Sequence record: MK327941.1
From: Escherichia phage vB_EcoM_G37-3
DNA: 64,000 nucleotides
Strand: one strand, 5' to 3'
The notes beneath the pieces are model-generated. The model had not been told where the DNA came from and did not search any database. It worked only from the letters and a program-made list of their open reading frames with translations. Positions 1 to 59,497 of this stretch are shown one piece after another (position 1 is the first letter of the stretch; each line of letters begins with the position of its first letter). Made by a program: the position numbers and the translations under genes.

Positions 1-224
1 ATACTGGTTCCTTCTGCCGGAGTTTCTTCTTCCATTTCGGAAGCCAGTTTAGTTAATTCGGTTTCTACGAACTCGATCATGTTCTCTAGTGAGAACGTCT
101 TTTTGACCTTAATATCAAATTGTTTTGCGTAGTCCGCTAATTCTGTTTTAGCGGTTTTCTGTGCTTCTTTGTCGTCGGACGCCGCAATAGCGCGGAGTTC
201 TTCGAAATATTCTTTATCAAACAT
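1..224 (-). CDS. hypothetical protein, N-terminal part only (ORF runs off the window start)
   Basis: ATG at 224-222 preceded by GGAGAATAAC; open frame MFDKEYFEELRAIAASDD... continues to position 1. Confidence 0.5.
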   Translation of the reverse strand, partial: MFDKEYFEELRAIAASDDKEAQKTAKTELADYAKQFDIKVKKTFSLENMIEFVETELTKLASEMEEETPAEGTS

Positions 225-250
225 GTTATTCTCCTGATTGGGGGTGTTTG

Positions 251-258
251 TATAAATA
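251..258 (+). promoter_or_regulatory. T4-type late promoter motif TATAAATA upstream of uvsW
   Basis: exact TATAAATA about 40 nt upstream of the uvsW ATG. Confidence 0.4.
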
Positions 259-294
259 TTTGTATACTGTATTTATTGAGTGAGGCTATTCGCT

Positions 295-1982
295 ATGCAA
301 GATATTAAATTCACTTTCTGAACTACTCCCATGTTCAAATTGAATGTAGCGATTCAATTTTATTAGAAATGCGAGATTATTTTAGTTTTGAAGTCGAGGG
401 AGCGCGGTTTCAAAAAAGATTTAAGTATGGTGGATGGGATGGGCGTATTCGTCTTTTAGATTACAACGGAAAGCTGCCAATCGGTCTAACTAAAACCGTG
501 GGAATCTTCGCTAAAAATATGGGCTATAGCGTATGGGTAGATCCTCGCTTATTCGAAAAAGAACAAGTTACAGAAGAAGAAATTACAAAATGGTGTAATA
601 ACTTAGAATTATATTCCGGTGCTAACAGGATCACCCCTCATTGGTATCAATCAAAGGCCGTCTTTGAAGGTATTTCATCATAAACGCCGTATGTTAGTTT
701 TGCCTACGTCCGCTGGTAAATCTGCGATTGCTTGTATGTTGTCTCGTTGGTACTTAGAGAATTACGAAGGGAAAGTGTTGATCATCGTTCCTACCACGTC
801 GCTAGTGCTGCAAATGCGTGATGACTTTGTTGATTATCGCCAGTTTCCTTATGAAGCAATTCATACTATCATGAGCGGTACTAGTAAACACGTAGGTGAT
901 CGCCTGATCGTTGTTAGTACGTGGCAATCTGCATGTAAACAACCTAGTGAGTGGTTCCAACAATTCGGGATGGTTATTGTTGACGAATGTCACAAGGCCA
1001 CTGCTAAAACCTGCTAAACATCGTTACTGATATGGATCATTGTCAATTTAAGATCGGCATGACTGGTTCCCCTCGTGACGGGAAAGCTAACATGATGCAG
1101 TATGTCGGGCTTTTCGGTGATATTTCTAAGATCGTGAGTATTGACCGCCTGATGGAAGAAGGGCAGGTGACAAAACTGAAAATTAACTGTCTTTTCCTTC
1201 GTTATACCGATGAGGAATAGCGCGGTTAAGGGGCGAGAATATGCGGAAGAGATCAAGTACATTACATCTAACCCACGACGAAATAAGTTTGCTTGTAATT
1301 TGGCGCTAAAACTCGCTAAGAAGGGCGAAAACGTATTCCTGATGTTCCGCAACACTAAGCACTGAAAATTAACTGTCTTTTCCTTCGTTATACCGATGAG
1401 GAATGTAGCGCGGTTAAGGGGCGAGAATATGCGGAAGAGATCAAGTACATTACATCTAACCCACGACGAAATAAGTTTGCTTGTAATTTGGCGCTAAAAC
1501 TCGCTAAGAAGGGCGAAAACGTATTCCTGATGTTCCGCAACACTAAGCACGGAAAACTTATGTATGATGCGTTACAGAAGGTACACGACAAGGTTTATTA
1601 TATTGACGGTGGAGTTAAGACAGAAGAACGTGATGAATTTAAGAAATTAGCGGAAGGGGAAACCGGGATCATTTGCGTTGCATCCTATGGTGTGTTCTCT
1701 ACTGGTGTTTCCATCAAGAATTTGCATCATGTTATTTTCGGTCATCCAGTGAAGGAATCAACTATCGTTCGTCAGAGTATCGGTCGTGCATTGCGTAAAC
1801 ATGGTTCTAAGGATATTGCAACGGTCTGGGATCTTATAGATCATCTGGCGGTGAAGACAAAGAGCAATAATGCTAAGAAACAGTTTAGCCACCTTAATTA
1901 TGCTCTTAAACATGCGCTTGAAAGAATAAAAATTTACAACACCGATCGATTCGAATATGTCACGAAAACAATCGAGATTTAA
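295..1982 (+). pseudogene. uvsW: UvsW-like helicase gene, disrupted by three frameshifts and an internal tandem duplication
   Basis: Pieces in three frames (ATG 295; 369..683; 619..1017; 1032..1220; 1488..1982) together align along T4 UvsW (SAGKS Walker A, DECH box, C-terminal helicase domain); 1-nt frame breaks near 309-311, 672-680, 1009-1019; premature TAG at 1218. Confidence 0.85.
1176..1549 (+). repeat. imperfect direct tandem duplication (copy 1 1176..1361, 186 bp; copy 2 1362..1549, 188 bp) inside uvsW
   Basis: Copies identical except GT at 1405-1406, absent from copy 1, which gives TAG stop at 1218-1220. Confidence 0.9.
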
Positions 1983-1987
1983 TAAAT

Positions 1988-2010
1988 AGGGGCTTTAATG
2001 CCCCTTTATT
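1988..2010 (+). terminator. rho-independent terminator-like hairpin after uvsW
   Basis: AGGGGC-TTTA-ATGCCCCT followed by TTATT. Confidence 0.45.
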
Positions 2011-2025
2011 CTACGGAGATTAAAA

Positions 2026-2262
2026 ATGATTAGCTTTAAACGTTTTTTGGTTGAGGCCGCTATTGACGGTTTCATGCGTAAGATTTATTCTTGTAATACT
2101 ATCGAGGGATTAAATGAACTTGAGGCATATTATGAGAAGCGCAAGAAAGAAACAGAATTGAAACCTGCTGATGATATTTCGATCCGTGATGCCATCGCTG
2201 GACGCCGTAAGCAATTGGAAGCGGACAACGAGCCAGAAGAGGAGCCGGAAGAGGATTTTTAA
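2026..2262 (+). CDS. hypothetical acidic protein (78 aa)
   Basis: ORF with GGAG 8 nt upstream of ATG; acidic C-terminus. Confidence 0.6.
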   Translation: MISFKRFLVEAAIDGFMRKIYSCNTIEGLNELEAYYEKRKKETELKPADDISIRDAIAGRRKQLEADNEPEEEPEEDF

Positions 2263-2267
2263 GATAT

Positions 2268-2296
2268 AAAAAAGCCCCATCAATGATGGGGCAAAA
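2268..2296. terminator. bidirectional terminator-like hairpin between convergent genes
   Basis: AAAAAAGCCCCATCAATGATGGGGCAAAA; perfect 8-bp stem flanked by A run and T run (minus strand). Confidence 0.5.
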
Positions 2297-2325
2297 TAAA
2301 CCAATTAAAATCGGTTATCAACAAA

Positions 2326-2502
2326 TTACATTAACAGCATTGTTTGCTCTACGAGTTGTTCTTGTTCTTCGCCGTTCGCATCTTCACTAATCGAACGTTC
2401 TGTTACTAGCTGTAAGCAGTAGCCAGTGTGAACAACGCCGTTTTCTGTCTGGACGGATAACGCATCCTCGACAGGTTGTTTACAACAAATACAGATTTTC
2501 AT
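2326..2502 (-). CDS. small Cys-rich protein (58 aa), in the uvsY.-2 position; not in ORF track
   Basis: AGGAGGAATTTTT-ATG; MKICICCKQPVED...; directly downstream of uvsY. Confidence 0.5.
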   Translation of the reverse strand: MKICICCKQPVEDALSVQTENGVVHTGYCLQLVTERSISEDANGEEQEQLVEQTMLLM

Positions 2503-6449: not shown

Positions 6450-6473
6450 ATGACGCATTAACATCATTTCGGG

Positions 6474-8177
6474 ATGCGCAAGGAAGCGGAAGAAAACCCG
6501 ATTGATAAACTTAACAAATTAGATAAACTTGATTCTATTGATAATTTGCAAGCCGCTACCGAATTGGTGGCGGAGACAGTGGAACAAAAATCTAATGAAG
6601 TTGTTGGTGCGGTAGAGGATAACACCGCAGCCAATGAATTGACGGCAGAAAATACACAATCTACCGCTGGCAATACCCAAAAAACTTATGAAGAATTGCA
6701 AAAACTCAATAATTTCTCTTCTCAGATGAATGAGAAATTACGTGGTTTTGGTGTTATGATGGAACGTAGATTTGGTGTTGTCAGTAAAATGGCTAGCGGT
6801 ATTGGTGCGATTGAAGAAGCATTGAAAAAACCGGAACAACCGCAAACAATGCCATCACCTCAGCCAGTTTTGCCTACTGTGCCGGAACAGCCTAATAATG
6901 ACAACTATCAAGGTCTTCCAAAGAAAAAACCAGATGTTGAGGAACGGAAGAAAAAGAACGCCACAGATAAGCGTAATGCAGATTCTATGGAAAATCTTCT
7001 TAAAGTTGTTCGTGGAGGATTTAAAGAAACCATAGGTATCTCTAATAAGGTCTTAGGGATGTTATTTAAGATCACTTTGACCGCTATGGCAGAAGCCGCA
7101 AAATGGGGTGCTATTTTGATGGGTATTGTTTTTGTCATTGATACCCTGATGGTTCATTTCAGATATTGGAGCGATTTATTCGAGACAAAGTTCAGTGAAT
7201 TTATGGATAAGGCCGGAGAATGGGCTGGTCCTATTAGCGATATTTTAACTACTGTTCGTCAGGTTCGAGATTATTGGTCTAAAGGCGAATATGGGGAGTT
7301 AATTAAATCTCTTGTTATGGGTATTGGTGATGCATTCTATAAAACCTTTATCCAACTTGATCGAATTATCACTACTGGTATTGCTAAAATTCTTCGCATG
7401 ATCCCTGGTATGGGTGATTATGCCGATAAGTTAGAATATGGTGCTTTAAAATCTGCTGTCGCTCAAGGCTATACGCCAAATGAAAGAGAACTCGAATTAA
7501 TGGATAAGATCGAGTCTGAACACGAAGAAGACAAATATGGAGAGCGCACAGGATGGACAGGAAAAGCCCGTGATATTGGCGAAGCTATTGGGGATTCTAT
7601 TAAGGATAAAGTTAACGAAGGTCTTGTTAGTCTGGGCTGGAGAGATCAAAAGGATGTTGACGCAGAGAAACGACAAGAAGAATTAAAACGCGGGGAATAT
7701 AAGTCTGTTTCTGCTGAACAACGATCTGCTAGTCGTAAACTTAGAATTAAAAGCGAGGGCGCGATCAATAATATTAATGAAGTTATGGAGAATTTGAGCG
7801 GTGACTATGACAAAGAAAGAATGGGAGAGTTGAAAAAGGATATTGATGTTTACCGTGAGCAAGTTCAAGATCCTACATTAGTTGAAAGTGATCGTTCTCA
7901 GTTAGAGCGTCTTATTGAAAAATTTGATGAGATGTATGCTGATAAAACTAAGGGTGTGGTTCCAACTAATCCTGTTCCTGCAACTGAAACGGAAACAGCA
8001 AAACAAGCGGAACGTACTGAACAAATGCAGAAACAAGCTGCAATCCAGCAACAAACGACAAATCAGACCTCAAACGTAAATAATACACAAATTGTAACAA
8101 ACAATAGAACTATTAAACAGGGTGCACCAACAACTAGAATTGATGCTCCCGGTACAATTAATATGGGGAACTTTTAA
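6474..8177 (+). CDS. 29: baseplate hub / tail length determinator gp29
   Basis: 567 aa; N-terminus resembles T4 gp29; start choice uncertain (weak RBS). Confidence 0.8.
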   Translation: MRKEAEENPIDKLNKLDKLDSIDNLQAATELVAETVEQKSNEVVGAVEDNTAANELTAENTQSTAGNTQKTYEELQKLNNFSSQMNEKLRGFGVMMERRFGVVSKMASGIGAIEEALKKPEQPQTMPSPQPVLPTVPEQPNNDNYQGLPKKKPDVEERKKKNATDKRNADSMENLLKVVRGGFKETIGISNKVLGMLFKITLTAMAEAAKWGAILMGIVFVIDTLMVHFRYWSDLFETKFSEFMDKAGEWAGPISDILTTVRQVRDYWSKGEYGELIKSLVMGIGDAFYKTFIQLDRIITTGIAKILRMIPGMGDYADKLEYGALKSAVAQGYTPNERELELMDKIESEHEEDKYGERTGWTGKARDIGEAIGDSIKDKVNEGLVSLGWRDQKDVDAEKRQEELKRGEYKSVSAEQRSASRKLRIKSEGAINNINEVMENLSGDYDKERMGELKKDIDVYREQVQDPTLVESDRSQLERLIEKFDEMYADKTKGVVPTNPVPATETETAKQAERTEQMQKQAAIQQQTTNQTSNVNNTQIVTNNRTIKQGAPTTRIDAPGTINMGNF

Positions 8178-13943: not shown

Positions 13944-13977
13944 TTGATACTCCTTAGTAGTTCGTTTCGGTATGTGT

Positions 13978-14006
13978 ATTATAGGGGATCGATGATCCCC
14001 TGTCAA
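13978..14006 (-). promoter_or_regulatory. early sigma70-type promoter cassette (PeSL-like, palindromic spacer)
   Basis: minus strand TTGACA-GGGGATCATCGATCCCC-TATAAT, AT-rich UP region. Confidence 0.6.
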
Positions 14007-14014
14007 CAACTTTT

Positions 14015-14533
14015 TTAGTTATTTTTTAATTGCTCATCTTGCAATAGGGCAATCACATGCTGGCGATGTTCTTCCGATTGAGGCACACCGAAAAAGTTTG
14101 TTTTGTAGAAATACTCTAATCGGTCTTCTCGTGTGCTCTCTTCCATCATGATCGCGGGTAGTCCGAGATTTCGGAAACGTCGCTTTTCTGCTGGCGTAAA
14201 ATCACTGTAATACAACATAGAATCATCATTACCAGCAATGCTAAACTCATCTTTCATAAAGGAGAATATTGCGTTTAAACGCTGTTTACCGTCCACGATT
14301 TCGATCTCATAGCGAGAGCCATCATCAATCTTAGCCATTGCGATAGCACCAACCGGAAAATCATTAATCAGGTTTTCGATAAACATACGTTTGTTTTCGG
14401 TGTCCCATACCAAAGGACGCTGATAATCTGGGTTCATGTTGATATATCCATCTTCTAACCACGCCTCATAAACAGAGATGACAAAGTTTTTAGTATTGGT
14501 ATAGTAACGGCGTTTAGGCGTTAAACGGTTCAT
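14015..14533 (-). CDS. DUF262 / ParB-like nuclease domain protein (172 aa)
   Basis: PDYQRPLVW and IVDGKQRL (DGQQR-type) motifs; start MNRL at 14533 with AGGAG; last gene of 5-gene operon. Confidence 0.7.
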   Translation of the reverse strand: MNRLTPKRRYYTNTKNFVISVYEAWLEDGYINMNPDYQRPLVWDTENKRMFIENLINDFPVGAIAMAKIDDGSRYEIEIVDGKQRLNAIFSFMKDEFSIAGNDDSMLYYSDFTPAEKRRFRNLGLPAIMMEESTREDRLEYFYKTNFFGVPQSEEHRQHVIALLQDEQLKNN

Positions 14534-16070: not shown

Positions 16071-16110
16071 TGTTTGATTCTCCTAAGTGGTATCTCGTCT
16101 TGATGGTTGT

Positions 16111-16139
16111 ATTGTAGGGGAGTTATCCTCCCCTGTCAA
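16111..16139 (-). promoter_or_regulatory. early promoter cassette (PeSL-like)
   Basis: TTGACA-GGGGAGGATAACTCCCC-TACAAT on minus strand. Confidence 0.55.
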
Positions 16140-16153
16140 CACTTTTTATAAAA

Positions 16154-16321
16154 TTATTTGTTAATTTCTGGTGCGTTGCTAGGATAGTAACCTTCTTTAA
16201 CACCCAGATATTTTGCAACCATCCCTACAATCTTCTGTGCTACTACAATGTCAAATTTCAGATAATCTTCGCCGTGGGTTTCAATGATATATGCTTCACA
16301 TGCTGCTTTAGTCTCGAACAT
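16154..16321 (-). CDS. small protein (55 aa), copy 1 of duplicated gene; not in ORF track
   Basis: GGAGAATCAAA-ATG; MFETKAACEAYIIETHGEDYLKFDIVVAQKIVGMVAKYLGVKEGYYPSNAPEINK. Confidence 0.55.
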   Translation of the reverse strand: MFETKAACEAYIIETHGEDYLKFDIVVAQKIVGMVAKYLGVKEGYYPSNAPEINK

Positions 16322-16354
16322 TTTGATTCTCCTATTTCGTTTCGTTATGTGTGT

Positions 16355-16383
16355 ATTATAGGGGATCTCCCGATCCCCGTCAA
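16355..16383 (-). promoter_or_regulatory. early promoter cassette (PeSL-like)
   Basis: TTGACG-GGGATCGGGAGATCCCC-TATAAT. Confidence 0.6.
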
Positions 16384-16397
16384 CAACTTTTTTAAAA

Positions 16398-16679
16398 TTA
16401 TTCGTGATTAGTTTCGATGTTGTGCATTTTGCACCAGTTCAGCCAATCACCCAGATCCTGATAGTTAATGCTTTTATCTGCTGCCATCGTTTTTGTCTTG
16501 ATACCCATATGTGCGTTATGAGTAAGCATTTTTACAGTGAACTCAATTTTATCACCTTTAGCTTTAACATCAACCAGTTTGGTCCACTGGCTACCAGCGC
16601 CGCGAATGTTCATACCAACGATGTTTCCGATGTATGCTTCTTTGTTTTTCAGGATTTCGGTTGCTTTGATGAATTTCAT
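16398..16679 (-). CDS. hypothetical protein (93 aa)
   Basis: ORF with conserved leader and GGAG. Confidence 0.6.
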   Translation of the reverse strand: MKFIKATEILKNKEAYIGNIVGMNIRGAGSQWTKLVDVKAKGDKIEFTVKMLTHNAHMGIKTKTMAADKSINYQDLGDWLNWCKMHNIETNHE

Positions 16680-16749
16680 TTTTGATTCTCCAGTTCGTTT
16701 CGGTATGTGTGTATTATGCTATGTTCTTACTTTGGTGTCAACAACTTTT

Positions 16750-17019
16750 TTAGATATTTTCAGAAATAAATTTTAAAACTTGACGTAAATGTTTCTCATC
16801 TTTGATAGTCGCCGGAAGTTCTTCTTTTACTTCCTGTGCAAGATAGATATTTCCGTTCCAAGTGAAAGATCCGTCTTCGTTTACGCGATAGCTGAACATC
16901 CACTCGCAATCATTTTCGATTTCATATACACACAGAAGGGTGTAATCGTTAAAGCTATTGATTTCAAGGTCGAAGCCGTGACGTTTTGCAAAGTTGGTAG
17001 TGGTTTTAGTCAGAGCCAT
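16750..17019 (-). CDS. hypothetical protein (89 aa)
   Basis: ORF with conserved leader. Confidence 0.6.
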   Translation of the reverse strand: MALTKTTTNFAKRHGFDLEINSFNDYTLLCVYEIENDCEWMFSYRVNEDGSFTWNGNIYLAQEVKEELPATIKDEKHLRQVLKFISENI

Positions 17020-17098
17020 TGTTTGATTCTCCTAAATGGTATCTCGTTTCGATGTGTGTATTATGCTATAGGCCGGATCTGGTGTCAATGCCTTTTTT

Positions 17099-17123
17099 AA
17101 AAAAGCCGACACTAAGGTCGGCT
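17099..17123 (-). terminator. rho-independent terminator downstream of 17131 gene
   Basis: AGCCGAC-CTTAGT-GTCGGCT then TTTTTT on minus strand. Confidence 0.5.
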
Positions 17124-17777: not shown

Positions 17778-17823
17778 AATTTGATTCTCCTAGTTAGAAA
17801 GTGTATCTCGTTTCGATGGGGAT

Positions 17824-17852
17824 ATTATGCTATATCCCCGATCCGGTGTCAA
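17824..17852 (-). promoter_or_regulatory. early promoter cassette (PeSL-like)
   Basis: TTGACA, 17-nt spacer, CATAAT. Confidence 0.5.
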
Positions 17853-17858
17853 CACTTT

Positions 17859-18137
17859 TTATAAAATAATTTTTTGATATTTTTCTATGATGTTCGTGTA
17901 AGTCACATCAACCGCTAGCACCGTTGCTTCGAATCCACCGTTTAGCCAATGGCTATGATCATGATCGTGAAAGAAACCTAGACCAGTACGAAGACCTTCT
18001 TTATATTCTGCGCGTACATTCAGTTTGTCGTCGATAAACAGATAAAACCATGAATTTTTACTAGGATTGATGATACAACCTTTCAGATTAGGGAGAATAT
18101 CACGACTAAGAATAAACTTATCACCTACTTTGAGCAT
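17859..18137 (-). CDS. small protein family member (92 aa)
   Basis: start MLKVGD with GAGGAA; FYLFIDDKL ... HDHSHW ... VLAVDV. Confidence 0.6.
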   Translation of the reverse strand: MLKVGDKFILSRDILPNLKGCIINPSKNSWFYLFIDDKLNVRAEYKEGLRTGLGFFHDHDHSHWLNGGFEATVLAVDVTYTNIIEKYQKIIL

Positions 18138-19349: not shown

Positions 19350-19413
19350 TTTGATTCTCCGTTTGTTGTCTTGATGGGAGTATCTTACTACTCCCTTTAA
19401 TCATTGTCAACGA

Positions 19414-19581
19414 TTATTTGTTAATTTCCGGTGCGTTGCTTGGATAGTAGCCTTCTTTAACACCCAGATATTTTGCAACCATTCCGGTGATCTTCTGTGC
19501 TACTACGATATCGAATTTCAGGTAGTCTTCACCGTGGTTTGCTACAATGTATGCTTCGCATTCTGCTTTAGTCTGGAACAT
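19414..19581 (-). CDS. small protein (55 aa), copy 2 of duplicated gene; not in ORF track
   Basis: about 85 percent nt identity to 16154..16321; MFQTKAECEAYIVANHGEDYLKFDIVVAQKITGMVAKYLGVKEGYYPSNAPEINK. Confidence 0.55.
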   Translation of the reverse strand: MFQTKAECEAYIVANHGEDYLKFDIVVAQKITGMVAKYLGVKEGYYPSNAPEINK

Positions 19582-19615
19582 TTTTGATTCTCCTATATCT
19601 CGTTGGTATGTGTGT

Positions 19616-19644
19616 AGTATAGGGGATCACCGATCCCCTGTCAA
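19616..19644 (-). promoter_or_regulatory. early promoter cassette (PeSL-like)
   Basis: TTGACA-GGGGATCGGTGATCCCC-TATACT. Confidence 0.6.
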
Positions 19645-19652
19645 CAACTTTT

Positions 19653-19943
19653 TTATTCTTTATACGCATATTTCATAAATTTGTCTGCTACTTCATCGGC
19701 ATGTTCCGATTCTACGCCGGATTCGAGAACAATAGCAAGGTCGGTTTCGTCGTGACCTTCGTACCAGTGATTATGTGTGTCGTTTGAATCAATATAGAAT
19801 TTATCACCTTCGTAAGTTCGAGCAAATACATCTAAATTCTCGTCGATGTAAAAGATCCAATCTTCATAAAGAATAACCGTATTAGCAAGGTTCTTATTAC
19901 CTTCAACGAAAGGTTCGGCTACAAACAAATCAGTACGTTCCAT
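19653..19943 (-). CDS. small protein family member (96 aa)
   Basis: FYIDENL ... THNHW ... LAIVLE. Confidence 0.6.
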   Translation of the reverse strand: MERTDLFVAEPFVEGNKNLANTVILYEDWIFYIDENLDVFARTYEGDKFYIDSNDTHNHWYEGHDETDLAIVLESGVESEHADEVADKFMKYAYKE

Positions 19944-20946: not shown

Positions 20947-20980
20947 GTTTGATTCTCCTAGTTCGTTTCGGTATGTGTGT

Positions 20981-21010
20981 ATTATAGGGGAGTTTAACCT
21001 CCCTTGTCAA
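20981..21010 (-). promoter_or_regulatory. early promoter cassette (PeSL-like)
   Basis: TTGACA-AGGGAGGTTAAACTCCCC-TATAAT. Confidence 0.6.
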
Positions 21011-21018
21011 CAACTTTT

Positions 21019-21330
21019 TTAAAGTTTTTCCATGATAACGGTCATAATTACATCTTCTGCGCGGGCGGTCAGATTATCAGCGTCAGCATGTGGGCGGTTG
21101 GTTGTTACAGAGATAACACCGTTGCGCACTGGTTTGATATTGATATCAAGATGATCCGCGAAACGTTCGCCAGTTACAGAATGAATTTTGGTGTTAAATT
21201 CTTTTGCCAGTGCCTTGCGAACTTCACGAATCAGGATAGCGTTTTTCAGTTGGTTCTCCGCGCTCATGGTCTTCTGGGTGTTCATGGTTCCGTCGAAGTC
21301 AATCATTGGCAGCGTTACGATGTATTTCAT
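21019..21330 (-). CDS. hypothetical protein (103 aa); paralog of 17490..17777
   Basis: ORF with conserved leader. Confidence 0.6.
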   Translation of the reverse strand: MKYIVTLPMIDFDGTMNTQKTMSAENQLKNAILIREVRKALAKEFNTKIHSVTGERFADHLDINIKPVRNGVISVTTNRPHADADNLTARAEDVIMTVIMEKL

Positions 21331-21375
21331 TTTTGATTCTCCGTTTAAGAAAGTGTGTTTCGTTTTGATGTGTGT

Positions 21376-21404
21376 AGTATAGGGGATACGTGATCCCCTG
21401 TCAA
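21376..21404 (-). promoter_or_regulatory. early promoter cassette (PeSL-like)
   Basis: TTGACA-GGGGATCACGTATCCCC-TATACT. Confidence 0.6.
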
Positions 21405-21417
21405 CAACTTTTTTGAA

Positions 21418-21762
21418 TTATTTTTTCATGAGCTTAATGGCTTCTTCCATAGCCAGCACATTTCGATAGTTAGGGTATCGTGTTAGATCGTCATACATTC
21501 GCTTAAGGGTGGAAACTTCCTCAAACTCTGGGTTTTCTAGATACAGTTGAACAAATTGTTTCTCTACCATCTCGGCTTTTAGCTTGTCTGCTTGTTCCTG
21601 TTCATATGATTTCGTTGGACCCAACACCAACAAAATGATAAAGGTGATCAACGGGCTAATGATCAATGATAGGATAACATAACCGATAACGCTACGGTTT
21701 AAACGGCTTGCGTACATGCCTACCAGGAAAACAAAAAGGATATAGATAAACAGAAAGAACAT
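21418..21762 (-). CDS. membrane protein (114 aa)
   Basis: two hydrophobic N-terminal segments. Confidence 0.6.
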   Translation of the reverse strand: MFFLFIYILFVFLVGMYASRLNRSVIGYVILSLIISPLITFIILLVLGPTKSYEQEQADKLKAEMVEKQFVQLYLENPEFEEVSTLKRMYDDLTRYPNYRNVLAMEEAIKLMKK

Positions 21763-24799: not shown

Positions 24800-25410
24800 T
24801 TATTTCGCGACCTTTGGATTTCGCCGCAGACCGGAATGTATTTGCGCTATACAACAATAAGAAACATTAAACATATCAGCTATAATTTGCTTCTTAACTT
24901 TTCCTTTAAGCCGCATTATTTCTTCGACTTGCGCATTTGTCAGTTTTGCCCGTGAGTGGTTTTCACCGACATTGTTATTGAGTCCAGTTCTAAATGAATG
25001 TCTCATATTTTCTAGTAAGGTTACTATTTCTAGATTCCACACATAATTGCAGGTTTTACACCATTGATGTGATTAACCTCAAGTCCGGTAACGTCTCCTA
25101 GAAATGCATTTGCTACAAGTCGATGTATCTTTTCGGCTTTAACTGAGATTTTACCATTGTCTTTTTGTTTTGACAATGTTGAATAATAATATCCATATCG
25201 GTCTAAAATTGGTTTTATTATTTTACCAACACGTTTTTGTTTTACGAGCTTAATATTACCGGGAGAAACTTCTCTATAAAATTCGATACTTCGGTCAATA
25301 GATCTCAATCTACCATAATTAGAGATTTCATACCACGGATAACCTACAGCTTGTCTCCATTCTTCCGGCGCTGGTAATATGATATTATCATCTTTTGTTT
25401 CCATTGTCAA
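24800..25410 (-). pseudogene. HNH homing endonuclease (NUMOD4 + HNH) split by a -1 frameshift
   Basis: N-part YPWYEISNYGRLRS ... VNHINGVK; C-part CNYVWNLEIVTLLENMRH continues in another frame; shift at TTTT 25054-25057. Confidence 0.6.
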
Positions 25411-25733
25411 CTGCCACCGTAAATTTCGACGATCTGCGCTGGAGTCAGCCCATCCACATTAATCAGACTATCAAGCCCAAAACTACGGAAACCTTCAACT
25501 GCAATTTCATATACTGGCAAAGATGTTTCTGATTCTTTACGCGGTTTTTCAACATTCGGAACTAACCACTTTTCGTATGTTTCAAACGGCATCAGTGCCG
25601 GATCTCGCGTGGCGATCATCTCGCGGACAGTACCATCTTTCTTAGTAAACTGCAAAGAGTGAGTACCGACCGAAAACATTTTCTTTAGTGCTTCACGAAG
25701 TGCGATATTATCAACTTGTTCAGTCATTATCAA
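25407..25733 (-). CDS. hypothetical protein (108 aa)
   Basis: ORF overlapping cd stop. Confidence 0.55.
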   Translation of the reverse strand: MIMTEQVDNIALREALKKMFSVGTHSLQFTKKDGTVREMIATRDPALMPFETYEKWLVPNVEKPRKESETSLPVYEIAVEGFRSFGLDSLINVDGLTPAQIVEIYGGS

Positions 25734-29761: not shown

Positions 29762-30160
29762 TTAACTTTCCAGAATATCGCGAGCTTCGTTACGCTCCTT
29801 GATGATTTTCAGGACAAATTCCAGTTTTTCTTTGTTTAGTGTTCCGTTTTCCATTGCTTCTTTGACGGTAAACACTCCGCCACCTTGCCCGTATACAGTG
29901 ACAGTGATTTCACCTAACATCGTGGTATGAAAACCGCCAATTTTCGGTGATTCGAAAGAAACAATTACCTCGCGGACAGTATTACCGTCGTTGATTTCTG
30001 AGAGGGTAATGTCGTTTTTGTAGGCGGTTGCTTTAACCATACGGATCAGCATAGTCTGATCTGGGGAGATGGTCATTTTGTCCATTGCATGTTGCAATGC
30101 AGCGTAACCGAAAACTTTAACGAAGTCCAGAACGTCTTTGCGAGTTTGAAATTTAATCAT
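29762..30160 (-). CDS. hypothetical protein (132 aa)
   Basis: ORF behind promoter cassette. Confidence 0.6.
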   Translation of the reverse strand: MIKFQTRKDVLDFVKVFGYAALQHAMDKMTISPDQTMLIRMVKATAYKNDITLSEINDGNTVREVIVSFESPKIGGFHTTMLGEITVTVYGQGGGVFTVKEAMENGTLNKEKLEFVLKIIKERNEARDILES

Positions 30161-30193
30161 CTTGATACTCCTTAGTTGTTTTGGTATGGGAGT

Positions 30194-30222
30194 ATCTTAC
30201 TACTCCCGTGATATGCTGTCAA
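30194..30222 (-). promoter_or_regulatory. early promoter cassette (PeSL-like, stem-loop overlapping -10)
   Basis: TTGACA, 17-nt spacer, TAAGAT inside GGGAGTA..TACTCCC hairpin. Confidence 0.5.
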
Positions 30223-30230
30223 CTGCTTTT

Positions 30231-30380
30231 TTATGCAACCGCAAACATCAACATTTGAACATTCTTGGCTGTCTGGCTTTCAAAGTTCTGACATTCTTTG
30301 ATAATGTCCTCTACTTTCTCGCCGGAGATCTCCGCGTAAGTTTCGATTGCCATTTTAAGTACCGCGTCAAAGTTGTTCAT
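30231..30380 (-). CDS. small protein (49 aa); not in ORF track
   Basis: GGAGAATCAA-ATG; MNNFDAVLKMAIETYAEISGEKVEDIIKECQNFESQTAKNVQMLMFAVA. Confidence 0.45.
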   Translation of the reverse strand: MNNFDAVLKMAIETYAEISGEKVEDIIKECQNFESQTAKNVQMLMFAVA

Positions 30381-30418
30381 TTGATTCTCCTTAAAGTGTA
30401 TTTCGTTTCGATGGGGGT

Positions 30419-30447
30419 ATATTACTACCCCCGTTTCATGCTGTCAA
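30419..30447 (-). promoter_or_regulatory. early promoter cassette (PeSL-like)
   Basis: TTGACA, 17-nt spacer, TAATAT within GGGGGTAGTAATATACCCCC. Confidence 0.5.
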
Positions 30448-30666
30448 CTACTTTTTAATGACAAGTTCGAATTTTGCTACCTTGCGTCCTCGTTTATTGA
30501 AAGCAACCCACGGACGGTTTTCAATGTAGAACAATTCTTCACCAATAATGAATACTGGCTGATTGTAAAGGCGACCCATCAGGTCACGCTGGCGAATGGT
30601 AGTAGATTCGTATACTTCGCCCACTACAAAGTGTTTGCTGATAGAGTCGGTGCAAGTAAATTTCAT
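30448..30666 (-). CDS. hypothetical protein (72 aa); paralog of 59498..59704
   Basis: shared C-terminal VAKFE motif. Confidence 0.55.
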   Translation of the reverse strand: MKFTCTDSISKHFVVGEVYESTTIRQRDLMGRLYNQPVFIIGEELFYIENRPWVAFNKRGRKVAKFELVIKK

Positions 30667-30699
30667 TTTGATTCTCCTTTGTTTCGTTTCGATGGGAGT

Positions 30700-30728
30700 A
30701 TCTTACTACCCCCGTTATTCAGTGTCAA
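30700..30728 (-). promoter_or_regulatory. early promoter cassette (PeSL-like)
   Basis: TTGACA, 17-nt spacer, TAAGAT. Confidence 0.5.
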
Positions 30729-30735
30729 CTACTTT

Positions 30736-30954
30736 TTACTTGTTGTATTCATTCCACCATTGGGTGAGCTTATCAATTATTTTTGTGTTTCTATCCAACT
30801 TCTCCCACCGTTTTCTAGGGTTTATCAACCGGAATAGGTAAGGTGTACTTGTTAAGTGAACTCGGTCAATGTAGTGATTGATGTACTGCTTTTCGATTCT
30901 AAGTTTCATCTTTTTACGATGAAAATATGCAATGACTTGTTCTTCTGTTTCCAT
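30736..30954 (-). CDS. hypothetical basic protein (72 aa)
   Basis: ORF behind promoter-like element. Confidence 0.55.
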   Translation of the reverse strand: METEEQVIAYFHRKKMKLRIEKQYINHYIDRVHLTSTPYLFRLINPRKRWEKLDRNTKIIDKLTQWWNEYNK

Positions 30955-31015
30955 ATGTTCCTCCGTTTCGATGTGCGTATTATGCTATGGCAAGATCAGA
31001 TTGTCAACACCCAAT

Positions 31016-31043
31016 AACAAAAAAGTCGCCACGATGGGCGACT
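31016..31043 (-). terminator. rho-independent terminator downstream of HAD-like gene
   Basis: AGTCGCC-CATCGT-GGCGACT then TTTTTTGTTATT on minus strand. Confidence 0.5.
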
Positions 31044-31531: not shown

Positions 31532-32691
31532 AGATATTTCCCGAATCGGTTGTAGTCGTCGTCTGTTAAATCGGTATTAACCTGAGATACCAGATACATA
31601 ATCTCTACTTCTTGCGCTGCATTCTGTACTTCGTCAGAGTTCAACCATTTACGCATCCACGGTAACGGATGACGACGAACACTAAACGGGCTTTTCAGTC
31701 CGGCAGCACGCATACGGGAATCTGCCAGGTATTCTACATAGGTTTTCAGAATTTCCGGTGACAGGTTAGGAATTGCCCCCATTGCGAATAGGTGGTCTAC
31801 CCATTCTTTTTCTTGCTCGACAACATCCAGAAAGATTTTCGTTGCTTCACCTTCAAGTTCTTCCGCAATCTGTTTCCACTCATCACCATCAACCCCCGTT
31901 TGCCATTGACGAATAATGTATTGTGTGCCTTTTAAGTGAAGTTGTTCATCACGCGCAATAAATTTCATGATCTTCGCGTTACCTTCCAGTAAACCACGTT
32001 CGGCAAAGCTGAAAGTACATGCAAAGGACACATAAAAACGAATTGCTTCCAGTGCATTGACGCAGTGTGCACACAGATAAATCGAAGCCATCAGATCTCG
32101 TTTTGTATCTTCAAAAAATCTTCTTGCATCATCTAATGCTGTCTGGTCGTCTCGTTCTTCCCAATAGCGGAGATCTTCTTTTGCATTCTCATACTTACGA
32201 ATCCAATAAAGAACATCATCATAATATTTCCCGATAGATTCCGCTCGCTTCATGATAGCAGGGTTATCGATGATCTGGTCGAACTCACTAGCCGGATCAA
32301 TGAAACAGTTACGCATAATGTGTGTATAGCTTCGGCTATGAATCGTTTCGCTGAATGTCCATGTTTGCAACCATGTATCGAGAGTTGGATCAGATACAAT
32401 TGGACCAAATACACGGGCTGGCGCTCTGCCTTGAATCGAATCTAGCAAAGTTTGATAACGTAAGTTCTCGGTGAAGAAACGCTTTTCAACATCGCTCATA
32501 TTCAGATATTGAATGCGGTCAGTTGCAAGTGAAATCTCTTCTGGACGCCAGAAAAATGACAACTGCTTCTCGATCAACTCTTCAAATACTTGATGACGCT
32601 GAATATCATAACGAGCAATCCCTAAATCACTACCAAAAAACATCGGTTCGGTCATAATATCAACATGTTCACGATTAAATACGCTCATCAC
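31528..32691 (-). CDS. nrdB: ribonucleotide reductase small subunit
   Basis: 387 aa uninterrupted; synteny. Confidence 0.9.
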   Translation of the reverse strand: MMSVFNREHVDIMTEPMFFGSDLGIARYDIQRHQVFEELIEKQLSFFWRPEEISLATDRIQYLNMSDVEKRFFTENLRYQTLLDSIQGRAPARVFGPIVSDPTLDTWLQTWTFSETIHSRSYTHIMRNCFIDPASEFDQIIDNPAIMKRAESIGKYYDDVLYWIRKYENAKEDLRYWEERDDQTALDDARRFFEDTKRDLMASIYLCAHCVNALEAIRFYVSFACTFSFAERGLLEGNAKIMKFIARDEQLHLKGTQYIIRQWQTGVDGDEWKQIAEELEGEATKIFLDVVEQEKEWVDHLFAMGAIPNLSPEILKTYVEYLADSRMRAAGLKSPFSVRRHPLPWMRKWLNSDEVQNAAQEVEIMYLVSQVNTDLTDDDYNRFGKYL

Positions 32692-33230
32692 TATTCTCCA
32701 TCAATTTTGTTTATATTGTAACCCATGTTGCCTTTTTCTATTTCTCTCAACGCAACTGAATTAAACGCTCTTGCCGCATCTTGTTCGCTATCAAATCTCC
32801 CTATATGAACACTCTTTCCTTGTATATTAATATGAACTAGCCATCTATTTGTGTACTTACACCAACTTACCCCGTTATATTTTGATGATGCACCTTTAAA
32901 TTTAGTTCTGTTTCGATTGTTGACAGAATAATCAGTACCTCGTAAATTTTCTATATGATTGTTCAGCTTGTTTCGGTCGATGTGATCTATAACTTTAGGC
33001 TTATGCCCGTGAAACATATGATAAATCACATGATGTATTAACTTCTTTCTATTGTCTACTGTTAGTTGAAGATATCCCCCATTATGTGGACTTCCAACCT
33101 CATCACCAACTTTAACTTTATTGCTTGTTGAAACCTTTCTGAAAAGTTTACCATCTTCGTATTTAAATAGATAATGATACCTTTCGTAAAGTATTCGGTC
33201 CTCTTCCGTATAATGTATTACCTCATACAT
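32691..33230 (-). CDS. HNH + AP2-domain homing endonuclease (mobE-like position)
   Basis: 179 aa; IDHIDRNKLNN (HNH) and YNGVSWCK...HIGRFDSEQDAARAFN (AP2-like). Confidence 0.7.
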   Translation of the reverse strand: MYEVIHYTEEDRILYERYHYLFKYEDGKLFRKVSTSNKVKVGDEVGSPHNGGYLQLTVDNRKKLIHHVIYHMFHGHKPKVIDHIDRNKLNNHIENLRGTDYSVNNRNRTKFKGASSKYNGVSWCKYTNRWLVHINIQGKSVHIGRFDSEQDAARAFNSVALREIEKGNMGYNINKIDGE

Positions 33231-33606
33231 AATATTTTACTCACTTTTTAACACAAAAGAACTTAGTATTTCTGTTAACTTCGCTATCCTGCTGCAATTC
33301 CTGCACAGCTTCAAAACAATTTTGATGTGATGAAAACTCTACGCTGGTAACAGTTCCTTTATTATATACGCCTACGCTAACGGAAAGCAATAACCATACA
33401 GTAGCCATTATCCTACAACCTCAAAGCATTTATCATCAGGAAGAATAGCCCATTCTACGCCATATTCATCCTCAACGTAGTAGCAAGCCCCATCATGTCG
33501 AGCATCATATACATCACCGACAACAAAGCTATCAGCTAGCTAAAAATCTACAGCAACACATTTTAATTTGGTCATAATAAAATCCTCACTTGTTTTTGAT
33601 GGTTGT

Positions 33607-33635
33607 ATTATAGCGGGGATTTCTCCCCGCGTCAA
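33607..33635 (-). promoter_or_regulatory. early promoter cassette (PeSL-like) downstream of nrdA
   Basis: TTGACG-CGGGGAGAAATCCCCGC-TATAAT. Confidence 0.5.
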
Positions 33636-33643
33636 CAGTTATT

Positions 33644-35887
33644 TTACAGCTTACAGGATGAACACTCGCTAGCGTCTTCCGTACCATCAGCACCATCACG
33701 CACGTTAGCGTAATACAGTGTCTTGAGGCCGTAATATTGAGCAAACAGCATATCATCTAACACATCAGCAATATCGACTTTACCAGTCTTATAAGTGCTT
33801 GGATCATAGGATGTATTGGAACTAATCGCCTGATCTACAAACTTCTGCATGATCGCTGCCAGTGTCAGATAGGGCTTGTTACCTTTCTTGATCAGTGTCC
33901 AAAGCAGGTCAATAACATCAGCATTATTCTCTACGTTCGGAATAACCTGATTAAATTGCCCTTCTTTCGATCCTTTAACCGATACAATCCCGCGAGGCGG
34001 TTCAATACCGTTTGTGCTGTTAGATACCTGAGAAGATGACTCACAAGGCATCAGCGCCGAAAGCGTACTGTTACGAATGCCATATTTTTTCAGGTCTTCG
34101 CGCAGTTCTTCCCAATCCATCTCATACACCGGATCAACCAGTTCATCTACTGTCTTTTTGTACCAGTCGATAGGAAGTTCACCGCGACCATAGCGTGTTT
34201 CGTGCATCAGTTCGCAAGCACCCTTCTCTTTAGCCAGTCGCACACTAGCCTTAATCAGAGCATATTGCAAGCGTTCAAACGTTTTATGCGTAAACTCGTT
34301 AGCGTCTTCATATGTGAAGAAATTATCTGCTAGATATGATGCAAAGTTAGTCACGCCAACGCCCAGAGATCGACGTTTTTTGGCTGTCAGAGCTTGTTCT
34401 ACAGGATAATCCTGATAATCTAACAGGTTGTCAAGTGCACGCACCATAACCATAGCAATGCGTTCTACTTCTTCCATATTTTCGATATCGAAATTACCTA
34501 AAACATATGCTGCCAAAGTACATAGGCTAATTTCTGAATCATCACGACCCATCGGTTTTGTTGGCAGAGCAATTTCACAACACAGGTTAGATTGTTTAAT
34601 CGGTGCTACATTACGAATAAACGCCCCGTGATTGTTCATGTTGTCTGTGAACGCTGGATAGATTCGACCAGTGTTAAAACGTTCAATTGCCACCGCTAAA
34701 AACAGGTCTTCGGCTTTAACACGAGTTTTACGAACACTCGGATCTTTTTCCAGTTTTTCGTAAAGCTGACGGAAACCTTCCTCATCTCGGAAGTACAGAT
34801 CCCACAACAAGCCACCTGCAACATCTGGACTAAACAGAGTAATGTAATCCCGTTTAAGGAATCGCTCTACCATCAGGTTATTAATCTGTACGCCGTAATC
34901 AAGATGACGAATGCGGTTATCTTCTACCCCCTTATTGTTCTTTAACACAATCAGACTTTCAAACTCTAAATGCCACATTGGGTAATAGAGAGTCGCCGCC
35001 CCGCCACGAATACCGCCTTGTGAGCATGACTTAACGGCAGTCTGAAAATGTTTCCAGAATGGGATAACTCCAGTATGACGAACTTCACCATGCCCGATCT
35101 TAGATCCTTCCGCGCGAATCATGCCAGCGTTGATACCGATACCAGCACGCTTGCTAATATACTTGATGATTGCATTTGCGGTTTCATTAATACCCTGCAA
35201 TGAGTCATCACTTTCAATCACCACACACGAACTAAATTGGCGTGTTGGGGTACGCACACCTGCCATAATCGGAGTAGGCAGAGAGATTTGCTTATTCGCA
35301 ACCGCATTATAAAAATCAATCACATGTTCAAGTCGATTTTCTGTCTCTTCTTGATGCAAGCACATACCGATCAGCATATACGCAAATTGCGGTGTTTCGA
35401 TGATTTTCTTAGTGCTGCGATCCTGAACAAGATATTTCTCTTTTAACTGCATCGCACCAGCATAGGTCATTTTAAAATCAAGTTTATGGTCGATGAATTT
35501 CTCCAGATATTCCACTTCTTCACGGGAATACTTTTGCAGAATTTCACGATCATATTTTCCGGTTGCAATATTACGCTCAATATGGCTGTAAAAATCAATC
35601 GGTTGGAATTGACCGTATACTGATTTGCGAAGCGCGAACATTGCAAGGTTACTTGCTACATATTGATAATCAGGTGTTTCTACAGTAATGTTATCTGCTG
35701 CGACCTTAATCAATACTTTCTGGATATCATTGGTAGACATACCTTCTGTCAGAAGTGGTTCAACCATATCAAACAATTCATATGGATCAACGTTATGACC
35801 TTCGGCTGCCGCTTCCAGAATTTTCATTACTTTTTCTTTTTCAAACGGAACAGTCAGACCGGAAGACTTAACAACATTTTTAATCAT
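33644..35887 (-). CDS. nrdA: ribonucleotide reductase large subunit
   Basis: 747 aa; ATP-cone N-terminus, C-terminal CSSCKL-type tail. Confidence 0.9.
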   Translation of the reverse strand: MIKNVVKSSGLTVPFEKEKVMKILEAAAEGHNVDPYELFDMVEPLLTEGMSTNDIQKVLIKVAADNITVETPDYQYVASNLAMFALRKSVYGQFQPIDFYSHIERNIATGKYDREILQKYSREEVEYLEKFIDHKLDFKMTYAGAMQLKEKYLVQDRSTKKIIETPQFAYMLIGMCLHQEETENRLEHVIDFYNAVANKQISLPTPIMAGVRTPTRQFSSCVVIESDDSLQGINETANAIIKYISKRAGIGINAGMIRAEGSKIGHGEVRHTGVIPFWKHFQTAVKSCSQGGIRGGAATLYYPMWHLEFESLIVLKNNKGVEDNRIRHLDYGVQINNLMVERFLKRDYITLFSPDVAGGLLWDLYFRDEEGFRQLYEKLEKDPSVRKTRVKAEDLFLAVAIERFNTGRIYPAFTDNMNNHGAFIRNVAPIKQSNLCCEIALPTKPMGRDDSEISLCTLAAYVLGNFDIENMEEVERIAMVMVRALDNLLDYQDYPVEQALTAKKRRSLGVGVTNFASYLADNFFTYEDANEFTHKTFERLQYALIKASVRLAKEKGACELMHETRYGRGELPIDWYKKTVDELVDPVYEMDWEELREDLKKYGIRNSTLSALMPCESSSQVSNSTNGIEPPRGIVSVKGSKEGQFNQVIPNVENNADVIDLLWTLIKKGNKPYLTLAAIMQKFVDQAISSNTSYDPSTYKTGKVDIADVLDDMLFAQYYGLKTLYYANVRDGADGTEDASECSSCKL

Positions 35888-53938: not shown

Positions 53939-53977
53939 TTGGAAAGCGGGGAGAAAATCCCCGCTAAGGATTCTTAT

Positions 53978-54274
53978 ATGGGATATTGGGTCAGTAGTGA
54001 AATTAATACTAAAATCGATGCTTTAAAATGGCATGTATTTGATATTCCTAACGGCTATGGTACTGCTCGCGCTGGCGTTGCTGTCATGCGTCATAATGCT
54101 GGTGGTGGATGGTCTGATGCACATATTAACGTAGATGGTTTGACCGTTGCTCGTCGTCGTGGTGGGTCCAATTGGGGATCTACTATAAATTCGTTTGTTC
54201 CTGCTGGCTGTACCGTCTCCTTTGGTTTAGGGGGTGAAGGTGGTGTTGAATATTTTAAATTCATGGAGTTTTAA
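53978..54274 (+). CDS. small Gly-rich protein, paralog 1 of 3 (98 aa)
   Basis: AAGGA-N7-ATG; MGYW...FDIPNGYG...GGGW; hairpin 53946..53964 just upstream. Confidence 0.6.
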   Translation: MGYWVSSEINTKIDALKWHVFDIPNGYGTARAGVAVMRHNAGGGWSDAHINVDGLTVARRRGGSNWGSTINSFVPAGCTVSFGLGGEGGVEYFKFMEF

Positions 54275-54276
54275 TT

Positions 54277-54582
54277 ATGGCTGGATGGATAAATCAAAGA
54301 ATGTCAAACGCTATTAGTATTTGGGCTAATGGTGGATATTTTGATATCCCTAACGGTTGGGTCACTGATTCATGCGGAATTGTTTTTGCTCATATGGAAG
54401 CCATTAACGGTGCTGGTGATCTTGGTTCTGAATTGGCTGTAAATGGATTGATTGAATCAGGTCATCACGCTGGTAATGCCGGAAGTTGGGGCGCTAGTTC
54501 TTTAGTTGGCGCTGGTGCTACCGTTAGCTTTACATTGGGTAAAGGTAGTTTGCATTATTTCAAATTCAGGAGAATGCACTAA
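54277..54582 (+). CDS. small Gly-rich protein, paralog 2 of 3 (101 aa)
   Basis: MAGW...FDIPNGW...; ends YFKFRRMH. Confidence 0.6.
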   Translation: MAGWINQRMSNAISIWANGGYFDIPNGWVTDSCGIVFAHMEAINGAGDLGSELAVNGLIESGHHAGNAGSWGASSLVGAGATVSFTLGKGSLHYFKFRRMH

Positions 54583-54884
54583 TGGCATTTTGGGTAGATG
54601 GCGCTTTGGGGAATAGGGCGGGTAAAGCAAATCAAGGATGGTTTGATATTCCTAACGGTTGGACAGCCGACGCTTTCGGGACTATTTCATTTTCCGCTCA
54701 TTCTTCCGGTGGTGGCGGCGGTGACTCTGAATTGTTTATTCATGGTTTTTGTGTTTCTGGAAGCCATAAGGGTCATGATTGGGGACAGATCCATTCTTGT
54801 ATTGCACCGCAAGGGGCGGTAATTACCGTTAGCACAAATAGGGGGGTCGCTCATCTTCGTTATAGACGTTTGAGCAACCGCTAA
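54582..54884 (+). CDS. small Gly-rich protein, paralog 3 of 3 (100 aa)
   Basis: AGGAG RBS; MAFW...FDIPNGW...GGGGGD. Confidence 0.6.
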   Translation: MAFWVDGALGNRAGKANQGWFDIPNGWTADAFGTISFSAHSSGGGGGDSELFIHGFCVSGSHKGHDWGQIHSCIAPQGAVITVSTNRGVAHLRYRRLSNR

Positions 54885-54939
54885 ATAAATAGAATTACGG
54901 AAAACTCCCAGGGAAGGGAACTACTAAGGAGAAACGGCT

Positions 54940-58165: not shown

Positions 58166-58924
58166 TTACTTGCAAACGTATTGATCTACATCAATTGCGC
58201 CACCGAATGTAGGATGACGTTTTTCGAATCGAATAGTTCCGTCGTTTGGTTCGAAAACGGAGTATTCATATAGATCTTTCTTGCCAACATTCTTATAAAA
58301 CCCGCCTTTAGTCATAACGGTTTCTTGTACGTTTGCTTTGTGTACGTTGTATTCATCAATGTATACAAAATCAACCATCTTCCCATTTTTAATTGTTACT
58401 TTAAGATCTCCTGGTTGGTTTCCATATTTTGCATACAGTGGCGCTTCTTTAATTTTTGTGGAAATTCCATCTTTCATACTCCACTCATAACGAACGGTGC
58501 ATTGATAGGTAAAAGTTTCGACCTTCGGTTCTTCCACCACTTTTTCTTCCTGTTTCGGTTGTTCTTCTTCAACCTTCGCAGAAGTCTCTGAATCGCTTTC
58601 TGACGCGGTTTCTTCTTTAGGTAATACATTCATCAAGTTTTGGATTTGAGCGTTGTATACAGCCTCCAGTGGCTGAATCTGCCCGATATTGATCATTGTA
58701 TCACGAACAGTTTTATTCCAGTTTCGTTGCTCTTGTTTCAGAGACGGATCAATCTTAACAGCCTTAACATACACCTCATGAAGTTTAGAGTCCAGTGCGG
58801 AGATAGACTCATTAGCACAAATAAACTTCTCTGATTTGGTAGTAGCTTTAGCGCAATCGAAGGACGCAGCGTTAGCACCGAAAGCAGTAGCAGAAAGAAC
58901 GATAGCAGCGATAATGTTTTTCAT
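58166..58924 (-). CDS. secreted protein with LprI / DUF1311-like N-terminal domain (252 aa)
   Basis: signal peptide MKNIIAAIVLSATAFGANA; CAKATTKSEKFIC...LDSKL...Y pattern. Confidence 0.6.
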   Translation of the reverse strand: MKNIIAAIVLSATAFGANAASFDCAKATTKSEKFICANESISALDSKLHEVYVKAVKIDPSLKQEQRNWNKTVRDTMINIGQIQPLEAVYNAQIQNLMNVLPKEETASESDSETSAKVEEEQPKQEEKVVEEPKVETFTYQCTVRYEWSMKDGISTKIKEAPLYAKYGNQPGDLKVTIKNGKMVDFVYIDEYNVHKANVQETVMTKGGFYKNVGKKDLYEYSVFEPNDGTIRFEKRHPTFGGAIDVDQYVCK

Positions 58925-58958
58925 AATATATTCCTCAGTGTTTTGTCTTGATGTGAGT

Positions 58959-58987
58959 ATGTTACTACTCCCTTAATCCGGTGTCAA
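58959..58987 (-). promoter_or_regulatory. early promoter cassette (PeSL-like)
   Basis: TTGACA, 17-nt spacer, TAACAT within GGGAGTAGTAACATACTCAC. Confidence 0.5.
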
Positions 58988-58994
58988 CTACTTT

Positions 58995-59150: not shown

Positions 59151-59181
59151 TTTGATTCTCCTTCGTTGTCTTGACGAGTTT

Positions 59182-59210
59182 AGTATAGGGGATCGGCGAT
59201 CCCCTGTCAA
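59182..59210 (-). promoter_or_regulatory. early promoter cassette (PeSL-like, palindromic spacer)
   Basis: TTGACA-GGGGATCGCCGATCCCC-TATACT. Confidence 0.6.
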
Positions 59211-59220
59211 CAACTATTTT

Positions 59221-59491: not shown

Positions 59492-59497
59492 TAGATT

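Follow-up and report, generated by a model that had tools for sequence, protein, structure and literature searches.

The UvsW protein of bacteriophage T4 (uvsW/dar) is an SF2 helicase of branch migration, R-loops, and fork regression and is represented by PDB entries 2OCA and 1RIF. It is needed in recombination-dependent replication, as the original prediction for the DNA analyzed here had stated, yet T4 uvsW knockouts are viable, albeit hypersensitive to hydroxyurea and DNA damage (reviewed in PMC3016281). The helicase activity of UvsW is also the trigger of Retron-Eco11, a type III-A3 retron, and T4 escape mutants on this retron carried frameshifting uvsW deletions in five of five cases (PMC12746101). 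At the level of genome rearrangement, the minihomology events of T4-type phages are UvsX-dependent and are mostly deletions between exact repeats of 3–13 nt (PMC8262927). For uvsW in Krischvirus, no paper was found in the literature.

The window analyzed here, i.e., the whole stretch of 64,000 nucleotides from Escherichia phage vB_EcoM_G37-3 (MK327941.1), is a segment of a Krischvirus genome, an RB49/Phi1-like, T4-type coliphage. A megablast search of positions 1–2400 against 50,697 phage records matched 58 records, all of them Krischvirus, with RB49, Phi1, GEC-3S, and GoldenSnicker among them. Identity is 97.6–98.5% among the 30 matches listed (of 58), and none of the records is identical. 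The following 24.6 kb show the same pattern of relatives. Elsewhere in the window, little or no alignment with GoldenSnicker and PHB13 can be made over positions 51591–54886, which take in most of the distal long-tail-fiber gene (ORF 51074–53938, 954 aa) and adjacent downstream sequence; the parts that do align are 68–74% identical, between flanks at about 95–97%, and an exchange of a host-range module probably accounts for the divergence of the distal tail fiber. At 32688–33309, between the genes for ribonucleotide reductase, the window has about 620 nt where GoldenSnicker and PHB13 have about 257 nt, and the small ORFs found there in these relatives are missing from the window or changed.

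In the annotated genomes of GoldenSnicker and Phi1, the gene order is inh, uvsW, uvsW.1, uvsY.-2, uvsY. The window is colinear with both, and an intact uvsW.1 (2026–2262) follows downstream of the feature at 295–1982; these two genes, and all features of the locus described below, lie on the plus strand. From the gene order of the annotated relatives, the feature is the uvsW ortholog of this RB49-like coliphage of T4 type. Once its five lesions are undone, the frame is open over 1503 nt and gives a 500-aa product that aligns with T4 UvsW (2OCA) over residues 3–499 at E=2.2e-196 and carries the Pfam domains UvsW_N (PF21241), ResIII (PF04851), DEAD (PF00270), and Helicase_C (PF00271). Full-length similarity of the repaired translation, together with the position between inh and uvsW.1/uvsY, bears out the gene identity given in the original prediction. 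By tblastn, the proteins of RB49, G2248, GoldenSnicker, and FL04 each share 99.6% identity with the repaired protein, and the same search found an uninterrupted 500-aa UvsW in 57 of the 58 Krischvirus records, the exception being phage vB_Eco_TB34. The likeness to T4 UvsW thus lies in the repaired domains and their alignment. The difference is that the gene of the window, as written, cannot make the protein, with a stop after 8 codons.

Relatives of this gene are also present in bacterial chromosomes. Matches to window positions 1–2400 were found in 23 of 5426 complete E. coli genomes, and at least 10 of these matches are a chromosomal gene annotated as "DEAD/DEAH box helicase" with approximately 80–88% DNA identity to Krischvirus uvsW (window 474–1847). 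In CFSAN061761 (NZ_CP042903.1), the only locus inspected, the uvsW-like gene lies beside a serine recombinase where a prophage inserted in ycdX has its border. This prophage-edge position indicates that a temperate phage has a recent uvsW in common with these lytic phages. Recombination with a prophage uvsW-like gene was considered as a source of the lesions and rejected, as the indels come without flanking substitutions.

Small indels were called by aligning the window with GoldenSnicker, Phi1, RB49, PHB13, Brandy, and FL15. In lesion 1 (307–309), a run that is AAAA in all six relatives is shortened to AAA, such that the ATG at 295 reads 8 codons and then meets TGA at 319–321. Lesion 2 (673–675) lengthens TT of all six to TTT. 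Lesion 3 (1006–1009) shortens AAAAA of all six to AAAA, four codons downstream of helicase motif II (DECH, 982–993 in the sequence and the repaired translation). Comparison of the two copies of the duplication described below gives lesion 4 (1217–1220), a TG/GT deletion in copy 1 that creates a TAG stop at 1218–1220. None of these indels is present in any of the 58 Krischvirus records. The original prediction had placed single-nucleotide breaks at about 309–311, 672–680, and 1009–1019. Three 1-nt breaks do exist close to these positions, and the loss of GT from the first copy with the resulting TAG at 1218 stands as predicted, while the cause proposed for the third break (CC where the frame needs CCC) does not, since the true site is the A run at 1006–1009. 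The reading frame lies in six open pieces (295–321, 309–680, 607–1014, 1008–1217, 1180–1362, and 1359–1979) that alternate between two frames, not in five pieces in three frames as first thought. With stops at 319–321, 1218–1220, and 1363–1365, there is no uninterrupted helicase frame; uvsW is indeed broken, by private indels and a duplication, and its frame opens only after five reversions.

Homopolymer-slippage loci have been proposed for T2 and T4 (10.1101/2025.10.21.683753), and the locus could by analogy be one of programmed recoding or a contingency locus, at which slippage bypasses the lesions or switches the gene reversibly. Such a locus would be expected to show a long slippery tract and an open alternative frame. 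Neither is found: the runs are short (A3, T3, and A4, i.e., 3–4 nt), five separate events would have to be bypassed, the shifted frames meet immediate stops (TGA at 319–321, TAG at 1218–1220), and the features occur in no relative. We regard this explanation as barely credible. The same immediate stops led to rejection of functional compensation between lesions, whether of the −1 with the +1 change or of the +188 with the −2 change.

The fifth lesion is a tandem duplication. Tandem Repeats Finder reports an array at 1175–1556 with a period of 188, 2.0 copies, and 98% matches, the sole large tandem repeat in the 64 kb. By the repeat call and alignment, copy 1 (1175–1360, 186 nt) is absent from all relatives, while copy 2 (1361–1548, 188 nt) is colinear with the single copy of the relatives and runs in the correct frame to the stop at 1980–1982. 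The original prediction had drawn the copies at 1176–1361 and 1362–1549; this is the same event shifted by 1 nt, a shift made possible by the AC shared at both boundaries. Copy 1 equals copy 2 minus TG/GT (1404–1406 in copy 2), with zero substitutions between the copies. Because the copies are identical except for the 2-nt deletion, either the same DNA was read twice or the event is very recent. Variants of this lineage's own are present in both copies, which rules against a co-assembly of two strains, a candidate that was rejected on this ground.

The duplication was found in none of the 58 Krischvirus records. The 2400 nt at the start of the window correspond to 2213–2216 nt in relatives among the matches listed, and the comparison with the uvsW of the closest relatives that had been proposed as a check shows the unit once in each relative listed, along with an unbroken frame in 57 of 58. 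The 30-nt duplication junction had no match in viral, metagenome, or bacterial-genome contig collections, and exact-protein look-ups with three uvsW fragments and with the 954-aa distal tail fiber, as well as a search of PLSDB plasmids, likewise returned no match.

The endpoints of the duplication lie inside a short imperfect direct repeat. The unit starts with ACTGAAAATTA (1175–1185), and its imperfect repeat, ACGGAAAACTT, stands at 1549–1559. The endpoint repeat, ACTGAAAATT / ACGGAAAACT, matches at 8 of 11 positions, of which the exact part is AC only, followed by 5 more after one mismatch. In a wild-type relative, an 8-of-11 match at 188-nt spacing occurs by chance at 0.16% of sites, or approximately 1% over any of 11 offsets.

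The age of the lesions can be judged from changes that are private to a sequence. Window-wide private counts cover the 55 kb (55,284 comparable bases) alignable with four full-length relatives and give 480 substitutions and 14 small indels found in the window alone. Positions 1–2400 hold 4 private substitutions (0.17%, vs. a window average of 0.87%), and the counts for the six aligned relatives in this stretch are 1–11 in five of them and 107 in Brandy. Private indel events in 1–2400 number 5 in the window vs. 0–1 in the relatives. The ratio of private indels to substitutions is 5:4 in 1–2400, compared with 10:476 over the remainder of the window (Fisher p=1.5e-6). Four of the 14 private small indels fall within 1361 of the 55,284 comparable bases (2.5%; p=3e-4), and four of the six frame-breaking indels are in uvsW (p=1e-5). 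The four small indels of uvsW lie 143–1052 nt upstream of the junction at 1360/1361; none is found in the 5 kb downstream, and copy 2 is clean. The uvsW lesions are recent, local, indel-only, clustered, and private to this sequence.

The ten private indels outside uvsW are mostly intergenic or locally compensated, and the window's total of 14 lies inside the relatives' range of 3–23. Indels at 18145 and 18168 were rejected as private, since they are also found in phage FL15 and represent natural variation. The window further holds intergenic direct-repeat families of 50–80 nt (13944–14020, 16085–16394, 16679–17102, 17784–17866, 19368–19655, 20947–21418, 30154–31021, 33596–33646, and 58919–59500), which consist of a GC-rich hairpin (e.g., TATAGGGGATC...GATCCCCTGTCAAC) with a T-rich tail and stand upstream of small early genes. 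Several natural indels among the relatives fall in these repeats, which we take to resemble the promoter–stem-loop cassettes of RB49-type phages.

One option offered in the original prediction was a decaying gene, that is, an old uvsW pseudogene, dispensable long ago and eroding gradually. Several independent disruptive lesions are what such erosion would leave. Neither an excess of private substitutions nor relaxed constraint accompanies them, with 4 substitutions in the 2.4 kb against 5 indel events, a repaired protein 99.6% identical to RB49 UvsW, and no substitutions between the duplicate copies. Compact phage genomes also usually delete dead DNA rather than retain it at full length. Low private substitutions with many indels indicate that uvsW is not an old decaying pseudogene, and the intact gene in 57 of 58 relatives further disfavors this option. 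An origin by gradual decay is therefore very improbable indeed.

Whether the damage is limited to uvsW was surveyed by translating 212 CDS of GoldenSnicker and PHB13 and comparing them with all stop-to-stop segments of the window. Besides uvsW, only two genes are frame-broken, gp29 and an HNH/NUMOD4 gene; approximately 100 others are intact, including many small accessory ORFs, and so are uvsY, gene 59, and gene 32. The earlier statement that every other large gene is intact is thus nearly right, the exceptions being gp29 and the 203-aa HNH/NUMOD4 gene, both broken by private indels. In all, the 64 kb hold six private slippage-type frame-breaking small indels.

The gene for gp29 (baseplate hub, tail-length protein) has a private CGCG-to-CG deletion at 6471–6474, in codon 9/10, and both deleted bases are present in 58 of 58 relatives. 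The usual ATG at 6446 now leads to a stop after 19 codons, while an in-frame ATG at 6474 (Met11 of the relatives) opens a 567-aa frame to 8177. Gene 29 is essential according to established T4 genetics. The change in gp29 represents either a sequence error or an N-terminally shortened gp29. The HNH/NUMOD4 homing-endonuclease gene (24803–25458, minus strand) adjoins the gene for gp31, a head-assembly chaperone, and is split in two by a private T5-to-T4 change near 25054. The gene encodes 203 aa in PHB13 and occurs in only 11 database phages; in 9 of these 11, the best-matching records each have one base more than the window over the queried stretch.

Sporadic homopolymer-type frameshifts are also found in other public Krischvirus records. 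In vB_Eco_TB34 (OX001802.1), the only one of the 58 relatives with a split uvsW, an A6-to-A5 deletion lies at the equivalent of window 412–417, and the adjoining inh has a T5-to-T4 deletion. These two deletions are probably sequencing errors of that record. Genes are also split in Brandy (gp28) and JEP8. TB34 resembles the window in having a homopolymer −1 change in uvsW. It differs in the site, since 412–417 is intact in the window, and in having one lesion per gene and no duplication.

The duplication is private, uvsW is unbroken in 57 of 58 relatives, and the lesions are indel-only and lie beside the junction. For these reasons, on balance the deposited sequence probably suffers from a local fault of sequencing or assembly, and the phage itself most likely does not carry the lesions. 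The private slippage-type indels in the HNH gene and in gp29, which is essential in T4, occur in the same window and also lead to this explanation. Besides being private, the duplicate has copies that differ by indels only, and the errors cluster near its junction, at the p=3e-4 given above. An indel-to-substitution ratio of 5:4, as opposed to 10:476, bears the mark of indel-type errors in reads and not that of evolution.

A fault of this kind could have arisen if approximately 1.1 kb (roughly 300–1360) were called from very few indel-prone reads, e.g., at a ragged contig end. The 188-nt "duplication" would then be an overlap of that contig end with the start of the next contig, or of the same, circularly permuted one. 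The overlapping contigs may have been concatenated rather than merged, the TG deletion in copy 1 having spoiled the exact match. When the assembly of a circular or circularly permuted phage genome keeps its terminal overlap un-trimmed, this likewise gives adjacent near-identical copies that are absent from relatives, and low-quality contig ends would give clustered, indel-only discrepancies at a normal substitution level.

Several observations sit less easily with a sequencing or assembly fault. Endpoints in a short imperfect direct repeat would be expected in approximately 0.2–1% of random contig overlaps (the comparison with an un-trimmed overlap suffers from the same coincidence, at about 1%), and the errors are one-sided with respect to the junction. 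The remainder of the window does not give the impression of a long-read assembly full of errors, with its 14 private indels against 3–23 in relatives. The longest homopolymers of uvsW are untouched (A6 at 412; A5 at 513, 556, and 1928), on which ground a systematic long-homopolymer error was rejected. The original prediction had listed an artifact confined to this locus among its options; an artifact is the best-supported option, although it is not strictly confined, given the gp29 and HNH indels elsewhere.

The sequence contexts of the lesions also bear on whether they were made deliberately, as an engineered knockout or as edits to the sequence file. The lesions lie mainly in one gene, and the junction 30-mer is in no public collection searched, which would be in line with such an origin. 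A designed knockout would normally consist of a clean deletion or insertion and not of three 1-nt run-length changes combined with a duplication and the loss of 2 nt. Of the 1-nt changes, two fall in runs of at least 4 (p=0.016 under random placement), the duplication ends in short homology, and similar private indels occur in gp29 and the HNH gene. Slippage contexts together with short homology indicate a polymerase or base-caller process. The engineered lesion put forward in the original prediction found no positive support, and deliberate change is a very improbable origin.

If the process was that of a polymerase, the window would record a genuine multi-hit uvsW null, in which replication slippage gave the three homopolymer indels and the 2-nt deletion and a microhomology-mediated event gave the tandem duplication. 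We consider such a null the main rival to an artifact, possible but less likely. Viability of T4 uvsW knockouts (PMC3016281) makes a real null biologically possible, all of the small indels lie in slippage contexts, and the quality of the remainder of the window is ordinary. As in classical slippage frameshifts, homopolymer runs are the sites of the 1-nt changes, and gp29 lost its two bases within a CGCG dinucleotide repeat. Endpoints in short homology are what polymerase slippage would leave and are a known signature of T4-type minihomology rearrangements (PMC8262927), which the duplication, with its endpoints in a short imperfect repeat, may resemble. The likeness is incomplete: the repeats in the described cases are exact, while only 2 nt are exact here, and five events are unlike a single escape.

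Within such a null, UvsW loss may have been selected and the allele thereby fixed, or a first knockout may have been followed by a build-up of lesions in a stock kept in the laboratory. Selection could have come from escape from a UvsW-sensing defense (type III-A3 retron) or from dar-type suppression of replication or recombination defects. Retron pressure for loss of UvsW does exist, and the T4 escape mutants on Retron-Eco11 are similar to the window in that frameshifting lesions of the N-terminal motor domain inactivate uvsW (PMC12746101). They are unlike it in being laboratory-selected deletions; nothing links the phage of the window to such selection, and it has far more lesions than needed.

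The number of lesions is a central difficulty for a real null. Lesion 1 suffices, with its stop after 8 codons, and with only 4 private substitutions, a further four independent events are very unlikely to have accumulated neutrally. Because the first lesion alone stops translation, the extra ones are improbable unless each was selected. A general frameshift mutagenesis is not seen, with approximately 100 other genes intact. With uvsY, gene 59, and gene 32 intact, there is no visible partner lesion for a dar-type suppressor, and the retention of uvsW in 57 of 58 relatives also weighs against its loss here. A uvsW null hit repeatedly or stepwise under selection, e.g., for escape from a type III-A3 retron, with later lesions (the 188-nt duplication by minihomology among them) removing activity left by re-initiation or slippage, is unlikely.

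The meaning of this locus depends on which of these origins applies. If, as is on balance probable, sequencing or assembly and not the phage is the source of the lesions, the consequence in practice is limited: the record needs correction, and neither uvsW nor, probably, gp29 should be given a pseudogene annotation or enter comparative studies as a gene loss. If the null were real, this phage would be the first natural Krischvirus isolate without a helicase that is kept intact in 57 of 58 relatives. It would be a T4-type phage that does without its helicase for fork regression and R-loops, which would tie in with UvsW as a retron trigger and provide a modest but useful natural case of defense escape by losing a conserved replication and repair gene.
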